Assembly (NCBI GenBank): GCA_044869815.1
Contig: JBIOXS010000023.1
Location: forward strand, 5,672 to 69,671
DNA length: 64,000 bases
Reading direction: 5' to 3'
From: Candidatus Rokuibacteriota bacterium
GTDB taxonomy: Bacteria; Methylomirabilota; Methylomirabilia; Rokubacteriales; CSP1-6
Positions 1,132-57,010 of this stretch are shown piece by piece. The position numbers and the translations under genes were made by a program. The number at the start of each line of letters is the position of its first letter. Position 1 is the first letter of the stretch. The notes under the pieces are model-generated. The model did no database searches and was not told the DNA's origin. It worked only from the letters and a program-made list of their open reading frames with translations.

Positions 1132-2985
1132 ATGCGGCGCGTGATCTCCCACGACGGTTCGCCTTCGGTCGCCGCCGCCGCCGCTCCTCTCGCCGTCGAC
1201 TACGAGGTCCGCGCGCTCGTCGGCGAGCCGGCCGGTGAGCTCGTCCTCGTGGGGCCGGGCTCGACGCTCCAACCCAAGGATGGCAGTCGGATCATCGGCC
1301 TCGTCGAGGCGGGCGACGTCGGGCCGTGGCCGCCGGCGTGGTACGCCGTGCTGCCCATCGACGCGCCGGCCGCGATGCTGCGTCGCGCCATCGCCAACGC
1401 GTTCGCGGATCTCGAGGCCGAGGCCGACCTCGAGCGTCTCGAGCGGGACCTGGGCGAGCTGAACGCCATCGGCATCCGGCTCTCCGAGGAGTCGAATCCG
1501 CGATTCCTCCTGGAGACCATCCTCAGCAAGGCGCGCGAGATCACGTCCAGCGACGCCGGCTCGCTGTACATCGTCGACGAGGGCAGTGACGTGGCCCATC
1601 TGCGATTCGCGCTCGCGCAGAACGACAGCGTGAACATCCCGTACCGCGCAGCCACCCTGCCGCTCACCGACGAGAGCGTGGCCGGCTACGTCGCCCTGAC
1701 GGGACGGATCGTGAACCTCGTCGACGCCTACGCGCCGCCCGCGGACTCGCCCTTCACGATCAACCGGTGGTTCGACGAGCAGACGCATTATCGGAGCAAA
1801 TCGATGCTGGTCGTCCCCATGCGCACGCCGCAGGGCGACACCATCGGCGCCCTGCAGCTCATCAACTGCAAGGGCGACTGGCGCGGCTCGCTGGAGAGCC
1901 CGGCGGACGTCGAGCGTCACGTCCATCCCTACGGCCCGCGGCACGAGAAGCTGGCGGGGTCCCTGGCCTCCCAGGCCGCGGTGGTGATCCACAACCGCCG
2001 TCTCTACCTGTCGATCCGCGACCTGTTCGAGGGCTTCGTCAAGGCCTCCGTCACCGCAATCGAGGCACGGGACCCGACGACGTCGGGCCATTCGTTCCGC
2101 GTGGCCGATCTCACGGTCGGCCTCGCCGAGGTCGTGGACGGCTGCGACAGCGGCCCGTATGCTCGCCTGCGTTTCAGCGCCGAGGAGATGATGGAGCTGC
2201 GCTACGCCTCCCTCCTGCACGACTTCGGCAAGGTGGGCGTTCGCGAGCACGTGCTGGTCAAGTCGAAGAAGCTCTATCCGGCGGACCTCGAGCGCATCCG
2301 CCACCGAGTGGAGCTCCTCAAGCGCGAGCTCGCGCTGCGGTCGGCACGCGCGAAGCTCGATGCGGCGGTGGCCCGCCGCGCCGACTACGCTGCGCTGGCG
2401 GCGCGCCTCGACGCCGAGCTGGCAGCCGCCCTCGCCGACCTCGATCGTCAGCTCGGCCTGATCGTCGTCGCCAACGAGCCGAACGTGCAGGCGCGGGAGC
2501 TGACGGCCGACATCGCCGCCATCGCCGGACGCGTGTGGCAGGACGCCGACGGCGCGGCGCGGAGCATCCTCACCTCCGACGAGGCGCGCATTCTCGCCAT
2601 TCCGCGCGGCAGCCTCACCGACGGCGAGCGCCTCGACATCCAGGACCACGTCGTCCACACCTTCGAGTTCCTGAGCCGCATCCCGTGGACGAAGGAGCTC
2701 CGGCGCGTCCCCGACATCGCCGGCGCCCATCACGAAAAGCTCGACGGCACCGGCTATCCGAACCGCGTTCGCGCCGAGGAGATTCCCGTCCAGGCCCGCA
2801 TGATGGCCATTGCCGACATCTACGACGCGTTGACGGCGACGGATCGGCCGTACAAGAAGGCGGTGCGCACGGAGGAAGCGCTGGCAATCCTCGACGCCGA
2901 GGGTCGCTCCGGCGCCCTCGACTCCGCGCTTCTCGACCTGTTCATCTCGGCTCGCGTCTTCGAGCGCGTCACCCGGCCGTCGTAG
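1132..2985 (+). CDS. GAF + HD-GYP cyclic di-nucleotide phosphodiesterase
   Basis: GAF region (DAGSLY, SKSMLVVPM, IGALQLIN) followed by HD-GYP motifs TSGHSFRVA, LLHDFGKVG, HHEKLDGTGYP and IADIYDALT..RPYK. Confidence 0.92.
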   Translation: MRRVISHDGSPSVAAAAAPLAVDYEVRALVGEPAGELVLVGPGSTLQPKDGSRIIGLVEAGDVGPWPPAWYAVLPIDAPAAMLRRAIANAFADLEAEADLERLERDLGELNAIGIRLSEESNPRFLLETILSKAREITSSDAGSLYIVDEGSDVAHLRFALAQNDSVNIPYRAATLPLTDESVAGYVALTGRIVNLVDAYAPPADSPFTINRWFDEQTHYRSKSMLVVPMRTPQGDTIGALQLINCKGDWRGSLESPADVERHVHPYGPRHEKLAGSLASQAAVVIHNRRLYLSIRDLFEGFVKASVTAIEARDPTTSGHSFRVADLTVGLAEVVDGCDSGPYARLRFSAEEMMELRYASLLHDFGKVGVREHVLVKSKKLYPADLERIRHRVELLKRELALRSARAKLDAAVARRADYAALAARLDAELAAALADLDRQLGLIVVANEPNVQARELTADIAAIAGRVWQDADGAARSILTSDEARILAIPRGSLTDGERLDIQDHVVHTFEFLSRIPWTKELRRVPDIAGAHHEKLDGTGYPNRVRAEEIPVQARMMAIADIYDALTATDRPYKKAVRTEEALAILDAEGRSGALDSALLDLFISARVFERVTRPS

Positions 2986-35102: not shown

Positions 35103-36767
35103 ATGAACGTCAACGTCGAGCAACTTGACCGCCAGCTCGCCGGCCTCACCGGTCGCTTCGCCGACCTCGGTGCGAAGCTGTCCGAAGCCGCGCGCGAGCT
35201 CCAGGATGGCGGCGCGCCGCCCGCGGAGTCGCTCGTCGAGCAGCTGTCGCAGCTGCGAGCTCAGTCCATGCAGCTCTGCGGTGACGTCGCCGCCGCCGCC
35301 CAGGCCGTCGGCGTCGCCGTCCCCGCTAGCGTCGATACCGTGAACAGCCTCGAGCCGCTGCTGCGCGCCATCGCGGCCGCCCTCGAAACGAAGCGCCGGC
35401 AGGCGGCGCTGGAGCAGGCGCGCAAGGGCGTCATCGAGGTCCTCGACGTCGTGCTCGGCGTCCGGCATCTCGACGAGCAGCAGTTCCAGCCGCTCGTCGA
35501 GTGTCAGATGCAGGCGCGCGACCTTCACGCCGTGGTGATGGCGCTCAACGAGAGCAACCTGCACCAGGCGCAGGAGCTCACCACGCGCGTGCGCGCCTTC
35601 TCCGATTTCCTCACCATGCTCGAAGGCAGTGACCGCCTCGACGACGAGCGGTTCGCGAAGCTCGAGGCGAGCGTGGCGGAGACGTTCGGCCGTCAGCTCG
35701 CCACCGCCGCCGCGCGCGGCCGCCTGCTGCGACCGGGGCAGACGCCTCCGCCGCCGGCCCCGGCGCCACCGCCGCCGCCCGTCGTCGAGGCGCCCGCGGT
35801 GGTCGCCCCACCGCGCGAGGTCGCTCCACCGGCGCCGGTCGTCGCGGCACCTCCGCCGGTGGCGCCGGCACCCGTCGCGCCGCCGCCGCCGAAGCCGAAG
35901 CCCGCCGCCGCGGCATCGGCGCCGGCGGCCAGCGCCGGCGAGGCCTCTTTCGACGAGACCGCGCAGTGGTGGCTGGCCGCGTGGGCGCGCTGGTCGGGCT
36001 GGCGCGGGACGACCTTTCCGGACGCGGTGCGCGAGGAGCTCGCGAAGTACTCCTACCTCTTGTCAGTGCCGATGCAGAAGAGCCACGAATACGAGGACGG
36101 CCTGCTCGCCTACGGGTACTCGATCCTCGTCGAGCACGTCGAGAAGCAGAATCCCGGCTGCGTCGGCAACGCACTCAATCGCCTGAAATCGGCGGTAGGG
36201 ACCTCGGTCGGCGCGCAGATCTTCGAGTACTTGCTGACGGAAGGTCGGCTCGCCGAGACCTATCCCGAGTTCATCAAGAACGTGCTGCTGGCCGCCCTCC
36301 CCGACACCGCCCCCTGGGTCGACGCGCGCATCGTCCACACCAAGGACGACACCCGCATCTTCCGTCGCCCCAGCGCGCGACTCGGCGAGAGCGAGCAGAA
36401 GCCGCAGCGGCTGCTCGCCGACAAGGACCGCTTCACCGAGCACAAGTTCTCCTTCAAGCTGCCGGCGCTCACGGCGCGCTTCATCCAGCTGTCACCGGAG
36501 CTGAAGGACGCGCACGGGCTCGAGGCGCGACTCAGGGTGGACGGGGCGCCGACGGAGAGCGGCTGGATCGTCACCGTCCCCCAGCCGCACCGGGCGTCGG
36601 CGAAGACGGAGGCGCGACCCTTTACCGCGGAGGGCACGGCCGTGCCCGGGATCGGCCGTGACTTCGTCGCCGTGTGGGTGGCCGTGTTCAACCCCCAGCC
36701 ACGCGTCGAGGCGAAATACGAGCTGGCGCTGACGCTGCGAAAAGATACGAAGGGGATGAAGAAGTAG
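35103..36767 (+). CDS. Hypothetical protein: helical N-domain, Pro/Ala linker, globular C-domain
   Basis: 554-aa ORF with strong codon bias behind a consensus promoter. Confidence 0.8.
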   Translation: MNVNVEQLDRQLAGLTGRFADLGAKLSEAARELQDGGAPPAESLVEQLSQLRAQSMQLCGDVAAAAQAVGVAVPASVDTVNSLEPLLRAIAAALETKRRQAALEQARKGVIEVLDVVLGVRHLDEQQFQPLVECQMQARDLHAVVMALNESNLHQAQELTTRVRAFSDFLTMLEGSDRLDDERFAKLEASVAETFGRQLATAAARGRLLRPGQTPPPPAPAPPPPPVVEAPAVVAPPREVAPPAPVVAAPPPVAPAPVAPPPPKPKPAAAASAPAASAGEASFDETAQWWLAAWARWSGWRGTTFPDAVREELAKYSYLLSVPMQKSHEYEDGLLAYGYSILVEHVEKQNPGCVGNALNRLKSAVGTSVGAQIFEYLLTEGRLAETYPEFIKNVLLAALPDTAPWVDARIVHTKDDTRIFRRPSARLGESEQKPQRLLADKDRFTEHKFSFKLPALTARFIQLSPELKDAHGLEARLRVDGAPTESGWIVTVPQPHRASAKTEARPFTAEGTAVPGIGRDFVAVWVAVFNPQPRVEAKYELALTLRKDTKGMKK

Positions 36768-37208
36768 CTAGTCTTGCGGTGCGGCCGGGGACGGCGTGAC
36801 GGGCGCCGGCGCGCCCGTGCGGGCGAACGGGCTCTTGGTGACGCCGAGCTTCTGCGCGATCTGGTTGGTCGACTGAACCGTCTCGAGCAGCCGCGCGAAG
36901 GCCTGGGCGGCCTCCTCCTTCTCCTGCTTGAGGATCTCGTTCTGCCTCTGGACCTCCGCGAGCTGATTCTGCATGTCGCCCTGCGCCTTCTGGCGCTCGC
37001 CGGAGACGTCACGAAGCTCCGAGATCTCCTTGCGAAGCTCGTGCAGCTCCTTGCGCAGCACGTCCGTCTCGTGCTCGGAGTGCTGCAGCTTGGCGCTCAC
37101 CCGGTGGCTCGACTCGACGAGGACGGCGAGGACGGACAGCACCTCACGGCTCTCGTCCATCCAGCGGATCAGTCGCTCACGGGCCTGGGCGCCGGCCGTT
37201 TCGTCCAT
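36768..37208 (-). CDS. Hypothetical coiled-coil protein
   Basis: E/K/Q-rich heptads. Start MDETAG follows a TAGATT -10 element. Confidence 0.75.
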   Translation of the reverse strand: MDETAGAQARERLIRWMDESREVLSVLAVLVESSHRVSAKLQHSEHETDVLRKELHELRKEISELRDVSGERQKAQGDMQNQLAEVQRQNEILKQEKEEAAQAFARLLETVQSTNQIAQKLGVTKSPFARTGAPAPVTPSPAAPQD

Positions 37209-37278
37209 TGTCGACGAATCTAGCACCCGATGCTGTCGGACTGGAAATTTTGGGCAACAGTGATACTTTGAGCCCCTC

Positions 37279-37647
37279 ATGCCGGAGGCGCGCAATATCG
37301 GTTCGAGCGGGCAGCAGCGGCGCTACATCATCGGCGTCGTCGGGCTGCTGGCGGGGGTGGCCCTGGCGACCGCGCTCGTCCTCGGCGCCGCGCCGCAGGG
37401 CGCGCGCTTCCTCGTGTTCCTGCCGTTCGCGGTCGGCGCGCTCGGAATACTCCAGGCGCGCGGCCAGACCTGAGTCCGTCTCGCCGCGCGCGGCGCGCGC
37501 GAGACCGACCAGGGCGTGGAGTCCGTCACGGATTCGTGGCTCACGGGGCAGCTCCGACGTCAGGCCCGCAGCATCGTGGCGCAGGCGCTGCTCGCGGCCA
37601 CCGTGCTGACCGCTCTCACGCTGCTCCTGCCCGCCCGCGCGGTCTGA
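37279..37647 (+). CDS. Putative membrane selenoprotein, 122 aa, in-frame UGA at 37471-37473
   Basis: The frame stays open for 57 codons after the UGA (QARGQT-U-VRLAARG...) and ends in a further TM helix. A long hairpin follows the UGA directly. Confidence 0.75.
37474..37509 (+). promoter_or_regulatory. Candidate bacterial SECIS hairpin
   Basis: GTC/GAC, GTCTCGC/GCGAGAC and GCGC/GCGC stems with a GCGGC apical loop. Confidence 0.65.
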
Positions 37648-38242
37648 GCTCGCGACGCAGCATCACCGTCCGCGAGGGCCGCACCTCGGCGCCGAGCAAC
37701 GTGCGCATCTGCGACAGCGCGAGCCGGTTCGCCTGCCGATCGAGCGAGGCCACGCCGTCGCTCGGCACCACCACGCGGAAATCGCGCAGGTAGGCATCGC
37801 TCGCGGTGAACAGCACGCAGCGGTCGGCGGTGAAGCCGCCGATGACGAGCGTGCGGGTCTTGAGATAGCGCAGGAGCAGATCCAGCGTCGTCGAGAAAAA
37901 GGCCGAGTGCTTCGGCTTGAGCACGACGTAGTCGGTCGGCTCCGCTCGGAGCCGCTCGGCGATCGGACGGCCGCGGACGTCCTGGCCGAGGACACGAGCC
38001 AGCAGGGCCGAGAAATCCGAGCGCCAGCGCCCGAAATTGTCGTTGGCGTAGATGACGGGCACGCCGGCGCGCCGGGCGCGGCCGGCGAGGGCGGCCAGGC
38101 GGTCGGCAGCGGCCAGCGCGGCCGGGAAGAGACGCTCCCCGCCCTCGAACTCCAGGTCGTTGATCACGTCGATCAGGACCAGGGCGACGTCGGATTCGTC
38201 GGGGACGTTGCCATGCAGATCGTGGTTCCGCGCAGGCGGCAT
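37616..38242 (-). CDS. Isochorismatase-family cysteine hydrolase
   Basis: ALVLIDVIND, KPKHSAF, GFTADRCVLFTA.DA. Confidence 0.92.
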   Translation of the reverse strand: MPPARNHDLHGNVPDESDVALVLIDVINDLEFEGGERLFPAALAAADRLAALAGRARRAGVPVIYANDNFGRWRSDFSALLARVLGQDVRGRPIAERLRAEPTDYVVLKPKHSAFFSTTLDLLLRYLKTRTLVIGGFTADRCVLFTASDAYLRDFRVVVPSDGVASLDRQANRLALSQMRTLLGAEVRPSRTVMLRRELRPRGRAGAA

Positions 38243-38352
38243 TCCGCGGCCTCGAACGTGCAACGGCCATACCGTGGATCGTGGGATGGGGCCGGCGAAA
38301 CCCGGCTATACTCACAAGCAGCACCGATCCGACAGGCGAAAGGAGCCAGGTC

Positions 38353-55889: not shown

Positions 55890-56399
55890 ATGGCCCGGCC
55901 CGCGACGCGCGAGCGGACGGAGCGGTTCGTGGCGCGCTGCCGGTCGGCCGCGCTCGCCGTCACCCCGCAGCGCCTGGCCATCTTTCGTGAGCTCGCGGCC
56001 ACCGATCGGCATCCCAGCGCCGAGGAGCTCCACGCCGCCGTGCGCCGCGAGATGCCGACGCTCTCGCTGGCCACCGTCTACAAGACGCTCGATACGCTGG
56101 CCGGCATCGGCGCCGTGCGTCCCGTCTCCCGGCTCGGCGCGCGCGGCCGCTGGGATGCCAACCTCGGGCCGCATCACCACCTCATCTGCACCGATTGCGG
56201 CGCCGTCAGCGACGTGACGGAACCGGCGCTGGACGCCGCCGCCCGACCGGCGCGACGCGTGGCCGCCCGCCACGGCTTCGCCGCCGCCGGACACGCGGTC
56301 GAGATCTTTGGTCGATGCGCGGCCTGTCGCCGCGCGCGACCCTCGTCGCGACGCCACCTCAAGGACCCAGAAGGGAGAGCCAGATGGCCGAAACGATGA
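55890..56399 (+). CDS. perR: Fur/PerR family regulator
   Basis: TPQRLAI, HPSAEE, SLATVYKTL, HHHLICTDCG, GRCAAC. TTGACA..TAAAGT promoter. Directly upstream of the peroxiredoxin. Confidence 0.85.
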   Translation: MARPATRERTERFVARCRSAALAVTPQRLAIFRELAATDRHPSAEELHAAVRREMPTLSLATVYKTLDTLAGIGAVRPVSRLGARGRWDANLGPHHHLICTDCGAVSDVTEPALDAAARPARRVAARHGFAAAGHAVEIFGRCAACRRARPSSRRHLKDPEGRARWPKR

Positions 56400-57010
56400 C
56401 CGCCGGGCTCAGGCTCGGGCAGCGGGTGCCCGACTTCGAGCTCATCACCTACGAGCCCACCAAGGGCGACTTCGGGAAGTTCAGCCTGAAGGATCAGATC
56501 GCCAACAAGCGCTGGACGATCCTGTTCTTCTACCCGGCCGACTTCACCTTCGTCTGAGCGACCGAATTCGCTGCTCTGGCAGAGCAGCACGATCGCTTCC
56601 AGAAGATGGGCGCCGACATCGTCACCGTCAGCACCGACACGCAGTTCACGCACCTGGCGTGGCAGCGCAGCGAGAAGGAGCTGAACAACGTGCGGTACTC
56701 GATGGGCGCCGACCCCACCGGCACCGTCTCGCGCATGTTCGGCGTCTACAACGAGGACAACGGTCTCGATCTGCGCGGCACCTTCCTCATCAGCCCGGAA
56801 GGCAAGCTGATGGGGATGGAGATGAACTTCTACAACCTCGGCCGGAACATCGACGAGCTGATGCGGAAGTTCAAGGCCAACATCTACATGATGAAGAAGG
56901 GCGGCAACGAAGTCTGCCCGTCCAAGTGGAAGGACGAGGGCGACAAGACGCTCGTCAATCCGGGCGCCAAGATGGTCGGCCGGGTTCACGAGGCGCTGCA
57001 AGGCTCCTGA
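56384..57010 (+). CDS. prxU: Selenocysteine-containing peroxiredoxin (UGA at 56555-56557)
   Basis: FFYPADFTFV-U-ATE occupies the peroxidatic Cys position of AhpC (FTFVCPTE). The frame continues through VSTD, RGTF, GRNIDE and EVCP. Hairpin follows the UGA. Confidence 0.93.
56558..56596 (+). promoter_or_regulatory. SECIS hairpin of prxU
   Basis: GCTGCTCT-GGC-AGAGCAGC perfect stem (56570-56588) plus basal GCGA/TCGC. Confidence 0.8.

Follow-up and report, generated by a model that had tools for sequence, protein, structure and literature searches.

A probable small membrane selenoprotein of an unnamed family behind an in-frame UGA in Candidatus Rokuibacteriota

The DNA under study is a window of 64,000 nucleotides from a Candidatus Rokuibacteriota bacterium of the phylum Methylomirabilota (contig JBIOXS010000023.1 of assembly GCA_044869815.1), and the element in question is a gene on its forward strand at positions 37279-37647. 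Under the bacterial code (translation table 11), this stretch is read as an open reading frame (ORF) of 64 codons, which runs from ATG 37279 to TGA 37471-37473. The comparison with homologues given below argues that the whole stretch is very probably one gene encoding an integral membrane selenoprotein of 122 residues, in which the UGA at 37471 is recoded to selenocysteine (Sec, U); the core of this claim, that a genuine selenoprotein gene was mis-called as a 64-residue ORF, can be taken as nearly certain on the sequences compared. The decoding mechanism is of the known bacterial kind, and the novelty is the family and its membrane setting.

Reading frame and homologues across the UGA

When the TGA at 37471-37473 is read as Sec, 57 further sense codons follow up to TGA 37645-37647, and no other stop or frameshift occurs within the frame of 122 codons. 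The read-through product contains three long hydrophobic stretches and not a single Cys, which leaves U65 as its sole Cys-like residue. The guanine-plus-cytosine (G+C) contents at codon positions 1, 2 and 3 are 0.78, 0.52 and 0.94 upstream of the UGA and 0.81, 0.56 and 0.91 downstream of it, relative to 0.707 for the whole window. An earlier note, made from the letters of the window alone, had described the 64-residue ORF with its stop at 37471, the 57 open codons and a normal third-position bias behind it, and had proposed a three-helix protein of 122 residues that ends in a transmembrane (TM) helix and has Sec as its only Cys-like residue; the frame, the codon composition and the structure model agree with this description.

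The codon 37471-37473 is also covered by contigs from three further soil-metagenome runs (X4 record 3, X5 record 7 and X6 record 11), in which no letter differs. Because these contigs agree at the codon, the UGA is not an assembly error.

The features of the gene are given below, where counts out of 150 refer to an alignment of the window protein with 149 full-length homologues and structural elements refer to an AlphaFold2 model computed from that alignment.

37279-37647, forward strand: complete coding sequence (CDS) of the predicted selenoprotein, 122 residues (M1 to V122), with Sec65 and the true stop TGA 37645-37647; assigned from the frame and from orthologues with a matching start, UGA column and similar end
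37294-37323, forward strand: N-terminal motif N6-I-G...R14-R15 directly ahead of TM helix 1; near-invariant N6 (143 of 150) and R15 (145 of 150); aligned by hhalign with the DUF2892 motif NVG..ER..R
37327-37386, forward strand: predicted TM helix 1, about residues 17-36; hydrophobic stretch in the sequence; model helix 9-35 (predicted local distance difference test, pLDDT, about 98)
37408-37461, forward strand: predicted TM helix 2, about residues 44-61, ending in the conserved LG.(F/L)QAR; model helix 40-62; P49 in 120 and Q59 in 139 of 150
37471-37473, forward strand: UGA probably read as Sec (U65), directly after TM helix 2; TGA column in relatives, Cys in homologues
37474-37533, forward strand: conserved segment after Sec, V-R-L-A-A-R-G-A-R-E-T-D-Q-G-V-E-S-V-T-D, predicted to be cytoplasmic; model with a short helix 66-70 and a beta-hairpin 73-76/79-82; A69 in 140, G72 in 126, D77 in 112, G79 in 127 and D85 in 120 of 150
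37485-37503, forward strand: conserved core of the putative selenocysteine insertion sequence (SECIS); stem 37486-37491/37495-37500, alternative register 37485-37491/37497-37503; loop beginning with the invariant GG 37492-37493; the single-sequence minimum-free-energy hairpin is wider (37469-37513)
37570-37632, forward strand: predicted TM helix 3, about residues 98-118, with the basic stretch R93-R94-Q-A-R97 ahead of it; model helix 86-116; T111 in 128 of 150

The first protein search, made against public gene calls, returned ten matches. Eight of them (70-84% identical) end at ...LQARGQT, exactly at the UGA, which means that the gene calls stopped there. The two more distant matches, of 131 and 134 residues, are full length and read ...LQARE(K/S)VCIALVARG..., with Cys at the UGA and with similarity that runs to the C-terminus. 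The next search translated 61 related genomes in all six frames without halting at stops. All 21 aligned matches carry TGA in the same column, cover essentially all 122 residues and are 37-98% identical to the query; one decayed copy with TAA and one unrelated weak match were also returned. In 19 of the 21 relatives, an ATG lies 64-68 codons ahead of the TGA, and the next stop follows 52-61 codons past it. Relatives without the ATG have TTG (L021) or GTG (L025, L029) in its place, and L028 has no start of any kind.

A search of 251 genomes of the window's own phylum gave matches in 62. A single in-frame TGA occupies the site in 54 of them (55 rows, one genome having two copies), seven others have no in-frame stop and one has two fragments. 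All seven stop-free genomes fall in one genus, five other species of which have TGA; the codon at the site was read in four of the seven and is TGC in each. In the cross-lineage scan, one genome per GTDB species was taken and the downstream motif LAARGxRN[LM]D was used, which yielded 80 loci: the site is TGA in 54, TGC in 24 and TGT in two. One of the Cys forms belongs to the culturable Pyrinomonas methylaliphatogenes K22 (L148). This sample is biased by the motif, and at least eight of its loci belong to genomes of the own-phylum set, so that the counts of the two sets must not be added. The 80 loci come from Acidobacteriota (Pyrinomonadaceae, Blastocatellia, Vicinamibacterales), Methylomirabilota/Rokubacteria/NC10, Chloroflexota, Binatia, Gemmatimonadota, Verrucomicrobiia, Ignavibacteria, Zixiibacteriota, Krumholzibacteriota, Thermodesulfobacteriota, Spirochaetaceae, Alphaproteobacteria, Polyangiaceae and 'Deltaproteobacteria'. 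The lineages named for the 54 TGA forms are Acidobacteriota, Methylomirabilota, Chloroflexota, Binatia, Verrucomicrobiia, Ignavibacteria, Zixiibacteriota, Thermodesulfobacteriota, Spirochaetaceae, Gemmatimonadales and 'Deltaproteobacteria'; TGA forms are known from about ten named lineages. Three unpublished genomes, G020 (locus L027), G094 (L054) and G135, account for one of the 21 rows of the first set and for three of the 54 TGA genomes, L027 being a row of three of the alignments and L054 of one; no conclusion changes without them, because all 38 sequences used for the SECIS analysis below agree.

With these sequences, a profile search of 1.84 billion cluster representatives gave 2505 matches at E <= 0.001, of which 947 reach E <= 1e-10 and 27 reach E <= 1e-30. 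Most of the 150 best matches are 104-184 residues long (one has 96), and nearly all of the 150 span almost the whole profile. The UGA column of the 150-row alignment is Cys in 144 of the 149 homologues, the exceptions being G, G, D, W and S. Near-invariant positions are T64 (130 of 150) and V66 (134), which flank this column, together with N6, R15, Q59, A69, G72, G79, D85 and T111 at the counts listed above. Because the position is otherwise Cys and nearly invariant, the Sec position marks a functional residue. A further Cys occurs within six residues ahead of N6 in the NIG motif in 86 of the 150 rows; the window protein is not among them.

These results also answer the checks proposed in the earlier note, which had named homologues that end at the UGA, or that carry Trp or Arg there, as grounds against recoding. 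Full-length homologues do not end at this position, their similarity continues past it, and Trp occurs once in the column, among the five exceptions to Cys. The statement in the same note that similar small proteins read QA...TCV proved accurate, as the Cys homologues read FQAR..TCV.

Selection on the codons behind the UGA was examined in the TGA forms. Among the 54 TGA forms of the 80-locus set, Leu68 is written with five synonymous codons (CTG 21, CTC 18, CTT 7, TTG 6, CTA 2), and codons 66, 67, 69, 76 and 77 also vary synonymously. The median pairwise ratio of nonsynonymous to synonymous substitution rates (dN/dS), determined from 36 own-phylum TGA forms (628 pairs), is 0.55 over the 50 codons past the UGA and 0.60 over the 58 codons before it; it is the equality of the two values and not their size that is informative, because dS is near saturation. 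The AlphaFold2 model of the whole read-through, including the part after U65, has a mean pLDDT of 96.2 and a predicted template modelling score (pTM) of 0.86.

The simplest rival is that UGA 37471 is a real stop, which would leave a protein of 64 residues with two helices, a terminator or attenuator in place of the hairpin, and behind it a chance frame or a separate small gene, for example one of 43 residues from GTG 37516. The table 11 reading, the eight of ten public gene calls of close relatives that end at ...LQARGQT, the strong hairpin behind the UGA and the frequency of long open frames at 70% G+C all speak for it. Against these stand the stretch between the UGA and GTG 37516, which is conserved as protein with the synonymous variation described above and is continuous with both flanks in 144 Cys-containing homologues, the TGA at the same column in many phyla, the equal constraint on either side, and the absence of a T-run behind the hairpin. 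The synonymous variation, the equal dN/dS and the single confident fold of the entire read-through, when combined, leave no room for a genuine stop with an unrelated open frame behind it, and we give this rival very little weight. Even less credence is due to a recent nonsense mutation (a pseudogene) of a Cys-form gene, or to a TGA produced by assembly error. Decayed copies of the family do exist, in G036, which has two fragments and whose first-search match had an in-frame TAA, and in G037 without the N-terminal part; against this, the same TGA is found in 54 own-phylum genomes, in 54 loci of the cross-lineage scan and in the contigs of the three further soil runs, and the frame of the window gene is free of other stops and frameshifts. 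The terminator with a separate ORF, the nonsense mutant and the assembly error were all rejected on the conservation and the extra-run evidence.

Two variants and two imperfect copies were seen in the course of these comparisons. In the other soil runs, a natural C>A variant at 37388 changes Ala37, in the loop between helices 1 and 2, to Asp, which is the residue of a close relative, and a C>G variant at 37566 is synonymous (Ala96). The decayed or incomplete copies are L030 (G036:C72), from the genome with two fragments and an in-frame TAA in its first-search match, and L028 (G037:C75), which has no N-terminal half and no in-frame start.

The hairpin behind the UGA and the selenocysteine machinery

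A bacterial SECIS has a G in its apical loop, a stem of at least 4 bp and a distance of about 16-37 nt between the UGA and the loop. RNAfold places a hairpin of 36 nt at 37474-37509, directly behind the UGA, with its apical loop at 37490-37492. The fold of 37465-37530 has a free energy of -36.6 kcal/mol (z = -2.5), which is equalled by 4 of 200 shuffles. The earlier note had predicted a 36-nt hairpin starting immediately after the UGA; its extent is reproduced by RNAfold, and its loop is shifted, since the conserved loop GG (37492-37493) lies 2 nt downstream of the single-sequence loop.

The conserved core was determined from a gap-free alignment of 38 distinct own-phylum TGA forms, with positions counted from the U of the UGA. 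The GG at +22/+23 is invariant (38 of 38) and is flanked by GCGCGC on one side and GCGCG on the other. Because the flanks are a GC repeat, two stem registers are possible, and the GG lies within the loop in both. The first register has six pairs and a loop of 3 nt; pairs 24-34, 25-33 and 23-35 are kept in all 38 sequences, the last with one U-G, and pair 27-31 is C-G in 15 and A-U in four. The second has seven pairs and a loop of 5 nt; pairs 25-35, 26-34 and 27-33 are kept in 38, 37 and 34 of the 38. Its pair 21-39, which joins the third bases of Ala69 and codon 75, is C-G in 14 sequences, G-C in nine, G-U in six, U-G in one and unpaired in eight. The loop position agrees with the bSECISearch model, and a stem of at least four contiguous pairs closes the loop in all 38 own-phylum TGA forms and in 52 of the 54 TGA forms of the cross-lineage scan.

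The codons that form the stem are almost frozen. Among the first 20 sequences, every A70 (13 of 13) is written GCG and every R71 (19 of 19) CGC, and R74 is CGC in all but one (19 of 20); in contrast, R67 uses four codons, and R93 and R94 use six and three. In the 54 cross-lineage TGA forms, A70 is GCG throughout, R71 is CGC in 44, CGA in six and CGT in four and is never CGG or AGG, and R74 is CGC in 50 and CGA in four. Codon 73 ends in G in 53 of the 54, even though its amino acid varies (T, A, S, L, V or M). Compensatory sets are seen as well: CGC goes with GCG, CGA at R71 with TCG (five of six) and CGT with ACG (three of four). Among Cys forms, a stem of at least 4 bp is present in 13 of 26, and in two of four within the own phylum; the difference between Sec and Cys forms (52 of 54 against 13 of 26) gives a Fisher p of 2e-6, which overstates the case because the sequences are kin. 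The interpretation of this G+C-rich hairpin inside the CDS as a bacterial SECIS is thus supported by comparative sequence evidence, and we call the element putative.

The element resembles the SECIS of Escherichia coli fdhF, which is likewise a hairpin within the CDS just 3' of the UGA and has its loop G's at about +22 to +24. It differs in the shorter stem (4-7 bp), in the GC repeats with their two registers, in the lack of an evident conserved bulged U and in the loop of 3 or 5 nt.

The source genome, an assembly of 3.69 Mb in 190 contigs with a completeness of 79.7%, encodes the machinery for Sec insertion at C40:1-3494, C101:2-1228 and C156:80508-81458. Contig C40 carries selA (592 bits), tRNA-Sec (69.7 bits, 1.3 kb from selA) and, at the contig end beside selA, the N-terminal part of selB; the C-terminal part of selB lies at the end of contig C101, so that the gene is split across two contig ends. 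The genome also contains selD, itself with an in-frame TGA. The presence of such machinery had been named as a check in the earlier note, and selA, selB, selD and tRNA-Sec were all found. That note had also cited a prxU gene in the window as a sign of Sec decoding; a peroxiredoxin-type selenoprotein gene with an in-frame TGA, encoding ...FFYPADFTFVU..., is indeed present at about 56396-56990 on the forward strand, and it is one of eight AhpC-TSA genes of the genome with an in-frame TGA. Among genomes of other lineages that have the TGA form, 24 of 29 yielded a selA match. In the genus that has both forms, selA is above the cut-off in four of five TGA-form and six of seven Cys-form genomes.

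Several of these results weigh against the recoding, or against the reading of the hairpin as its signal. The hairpin is short, its GC repeats are able to slip by 2 nt, and when the 3' partners are slid by two columns either way, 55-79% of the cells still pair. RNAalifold, applied to the first 20 sequences, gave an invariant consensus stem of 5 bp with no double changes; the two named registers were counted on the 38 sequences after this result. The stem overlies the conserved peptide A-A-R-G-x-R, and Cys forms keep mostly the same codons (R71 is CGC in 20 of 26), so that part of the nucleotide conservation must be ascribed to the protein or to codon bias. An Rfam scan of 37400-37600 returned only noise above E = 1. 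Outside the phylum, selA was not found in five of the 29 Sec-form genomes, assemblies whose completeness is not known, and it was found in 17 of the 26 Cys-form genomes. Since selA is common to Sec- and Cys-form genomes, its presence fits a selenoprotein and does not discriminate between the forms.

In two Cys-form genomes (G177:C5:48649-49906 and G178:C3:1551439-1552564), selA lies in two overlapping pieces, one of them with an in-frame TAG; this may reflect either a decaying Sec pathway or errors of long-read assembly.

Family assignment and probable kinship with DUF2892

The window protein has no match in Pfam-A or NCBIfam 20.0 at E <= 1 beyond noise, and none of 50 family members reaches a Pfam or NCBIfam cut-off. 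In the ESM Atlas, a Cys homologue has only clusters of hypothetical proteins as neighbours, and these share no Pfam family. Foldseek found no match in the PDB at E <= 0.001, its top rows being generic helical membrane proteins, and no PDB sequence scored below E 0.16 in a profile search.

A review of May 2026 tabulates 119 prokaryotic selenoprotein families and subfamilies, most of them with an InterPro-type domain identifier (Table 1, PMC13188914). None of the 119 entries of that table fits; the model scans covered the rows with Pfam or NCBIfam models, and the few rows that carry only CDD or PANTHER identifiers describe Trx-like, CopZ-like, BtuF and Fe-S proteins. No prior report of the family, or of a selenoprotein DUF2892, was found in the full-text literature, a scope that does not extend to supplementary lists such as Table S2 of PMC12013277. 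We could thus not find this widespread, unnamed family of membrane selenoproteins of about 120 residues in the family libraries or in the tabulated 2026 inventory; the window gene serves here as its founding example, and the description of an apparently uncharacterised family in the earlier note has stood up to these searches.

The membrane selenoproteins in the table comprise a MerT-like putative mercuric transport protein (PF02411), YeeE/YedE (PF04143), the SaoP permease and the SO_0444 family transporter (Table 1, PMC13188914). They are likewise integral membrane proteins with a functional Cys replaced by Sec, predicted from a Cys/Sec pair and a SECIS. They differ in size, in the number of helices and in the Sec motif (C/SxxU, GUxSG and UxC, against T-U-V here), and none of their models matches the window protein or the 50 members.

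The nearest known domain is the YgaP-like TM domain PF11127, formerly DUF2892. The window protein has no match to PF11127 at E <= 1, and three of the 50 members reach it below threshold (E 0.0012-0.01; gathering cut-off 25.3 bits). When the family was compared by hhalign with the DUF2892 domains of related genomes, a probability of 30.9% and E of 5e-4 were obtained over 65 columns, with NIG/NVG, R15, the two helices and the Cys aligned; with larger alignments, the values were 64.1% and 6.5e-5, and only the N-terminal motif of 20 columns was aligned. Both families have the motif N-[IV]-G-x-x-x-R...R...G, two TM helices and a near-invariant Cys directly after helix 2. The Cys motif of DUF2892 is G-x-C-P-x-Y/W, in contrast to T-C/U-V-x-L-A-A-R-G in the new family, which also has about 55 extra residues that form a short helix, a beta-hairpin and a third TM helix. 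The new family is probably a distant, extended relative of DUF2892 with an added C-terminal module, and not a member of it.

A further likeness is that, in the same phylum, Sec seems to take the place of the Cys in genuine DUF2892 genes too, with a hairpin behind the UGA. In eight own-phylum genomes, DUF2892 genes that are full length and stand alone (58-68 bits) carry an in-frame TGA at precisely the position of the conserved Cys; the sites read GW-U-PLW or GY-U-PGS, where a Cys form has GWCPLW. Behind the UGA of each of the eight lies a hairpin of 8-9 bp whose GGU loop is at +24 to +26, and the Cys form (L160) has no such hairpin. The genes, each identified by PF11127 with an in-frame TGA, are located as follows.

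L161, 926-1105, forward strand: putative Sec DUF2892 gene
L162, L163, L164 and L166, each about 1501-1683, reverse strand: putative Sec DUF2892 genes
L165, 1501-1680, forward strand: putative Sec DUF2892 gene
L167, 1047-1226, forward strand: putative Sec DUF2892 gene
L168, 1501-1677, forward strand: putative Sec DUF2892 gene

No NCBIfam model matches these genes, and PF11127 does not appear in Table 1 of PMC13188914. They look like a second unlisted Sec family, as judged from the in-frame TGA and the hairpin. The DUF2892 Sec forms support the idea that the Cys after helix 2 is reactive in both families, and they suggest a wider class.

The new family is large (2505 cluster representatives at E <= 0.001) and broad, with TGA forms in about ten lineages, yet it is modelled in neither Pfam nor NCBIfam. 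To our knowledge, few integral-membrane selenoproteins are known. Because gene callers halve the protein at the UGA, a whole family of membrane selenoproteins has been invisible in soil genomes and metagenomes. A family hidden Markov model with the Sec column marked, used together with the GG-loop hairpin, would enable correct gene calls in annotation pipelines.

Membrane topology, gene neighbourhood and possible function

The basic residues of the protein cluster at the N-terminus (R5, R14, R15) and in the segment 61-97 (R61, R67, R71, R74, R93, R94, R97), and R43 is the only basic residue of the loop between helices 1 and 2. The positive-inside rule predicts a cytoplasmic location for the N-terminus and for the segment 61-97. 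Sec65, with the helix and the beta-hairpin that follow it, would then lie at the boundary between the cytoplasm and the membrane, right after TM helix 2.

The proposed mechanism is as follows. The SelB/tRNA-Sec pathway would insert Sec at UGA 37471, signalled by the GG-loop hairpin, and the product would span the membrane with three TM helices, with Sec65, the short helix and the beta-hairpin in the cytoplasmic segment 61-97. The membrane-anchored selenol, or the thiol in Cys forms, may accept and pass on sulfane sulfur or selenium as a persulfide or perselenide, or may take part in thiol-type redox chemistry. Where a Cys is present ahead of the NIG motif, it may act together with the Cys or Sec. 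A catalytic or ligand-binding role of the selenol is suggested by the near-invariance of the position, by how often Sec replaces Cys there and by the Thr that precedes it. In general terms, a selenol at the cytoplasmic side of the membrane may serve redox, sulfane-sulfur or soft-metal chemistry, which includes the redox or metal handling suggested in the earlier note. A sole reactive selenol at the membrane surface of a three-helix protein points to undescribed chemistry at the inner face, which may be a sulfur or selenium relay, redox or metal handling.

The genes beside family members in other lineages bear on the choice. In 25 loci of Blastocatellia/Pyrinomonadaceae, an OEP outer-membrane factor and a short HlyD-like protein (210-330 residues) are encoded on the same strand directly upstream, at about -6 to -0.2 kb; an AcrB-type resistance-nodulation-division (RND) pump lies further upstream in 21 of these loci, and a second HlyD_3 gene follows in three. 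An HlyD_3 gene adjoins the family gene in eight loci, mostly of Vicinamibacterales, with some other Acidobacteriota and one Chloroflexota. In six loci (Binatia, Verrucomicrobiia, Thermodesulfobacteriota, 'Deltaproteobacteria'), genes for pterin-4a-carbinolamine dehydratase, DUF520 and MsrB (SelR) lie downstream, MsrB at about 2 kb on the same strand. On account of the efflux and MsrB neighbourhoods, an accessory role in metal efflux and a redox role at the membrane stay in contention.

Our first choice, which we hold tentatively, is a relay of sulfane sulfur or selenium, or thiol-type redox, at the inner membrane face. It is placed first because of the probable kinship with DUF2892: the YgaP-like domain is fused to a rhodanese in YgaP, a membrane sulfurtransferase, and a DUF2892 gene is induced about 10-fold under H2S-oxidising conditions in Azospira (PMC5358917). 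It is weakened by three points: the window protein lacks the N-terminal Cys needed for a Cys-Sec redox pair; the link to DUF2892 is weak, with no member at the Pfam cut-off and no PDB match by Foldseek at E <= 0.001; and the gene has no consistent partner, as synteny with the window is limited to the genus and its nearest neighbour and no partner is conserved across phyla. A selenoprotein that binds a soft metal or metalloid (Hg, Cu, Ag, As) at the inner face and hands it to an efflux or detoxification system is unlikely, if by no means negligible. In MerT, a cytoplasmic Cys pair passes the metal on in a comparable manner. This role would account for the OEP/HlyD-like/RND and HlyD_3 neighbourhoods and for the Cys ahead of NIG in 86 of 150 rows, and small membrane metal-transport selenoproteins are known (MerT-like PF02411 and SO_0444; PMC13188914); yet the efflux neighbourhood occurs only in Acidobacteriota and one Chloroflexota locus and does not extend to the window's lineage, Pfam gave no match to MerT or to any metal-binding family, and the window protein has no second Cys.

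Rather improbable, to our mind, is a selenoprotein that serves as a peroxidase or reductase at the membrane surface, acting on lipid hydroperoxides or exchanging electrons with quinones, with Thr64 and Gln59 tuning the selenol. Thr just ahead of the Cys/Sec (130 of 150), Gln59 (139 of 150), the wealth of Sec-peroxiredoxins in the genome and the MsrB gene downstream in six loci would suit such an enzyme; no similarity to known peroxidase folds was seen, the window protein has no resolving Cys, and the MsrB neighbourhood is confined to few lineages. The tentatively preferred relay can also be extended. The 122-residue family and DUF2892 might form one superfamily of tiny membrane proteins, in which the single Cys or Sec at the cytoplasmic membrane boundary is a membrane-anchored persulfide or perselenide relay, a hitherto undescribed membrane step in sulfur or selenium trafficking, and the Sec form is commoner in soil phyla (Methylomirabilota, Acidobacteriota, Chloroflexota); this extension is speculative and has little chance of holding in full. 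If the relay reading is true, the protein would hand imported or membrane-generated reactive sulfur or selenium to cytoplasmic acceptors such as rhodaneses or SelD, and it would be among the commoner selenoproteins of soil bacteria, annotated as a fragment of about 64 residues.

Within the window, the gene is a solitary one, flanked by a divergent coiled-coil gene (36771-37211, reverse strand) and a convergent isochorismatase-family gene (37616-38263, reverse strand), and the 3' ends of the latter and of the predicted selenoprotein gene overlap by 32 nt (37616-37647). The coiled-coil gene encodes a protein of 147 residues with a weak match to DUF7491. Beyond it lies a gene at 35103-36767 on the forward strand for a protein of 554 residues, with a long Pro/Ala-rich middle and no Pfam family. 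In 10 related loci, from the genus and its nearest neighbour, these two genes likewise adjoin the predicted selenoprotein gene.

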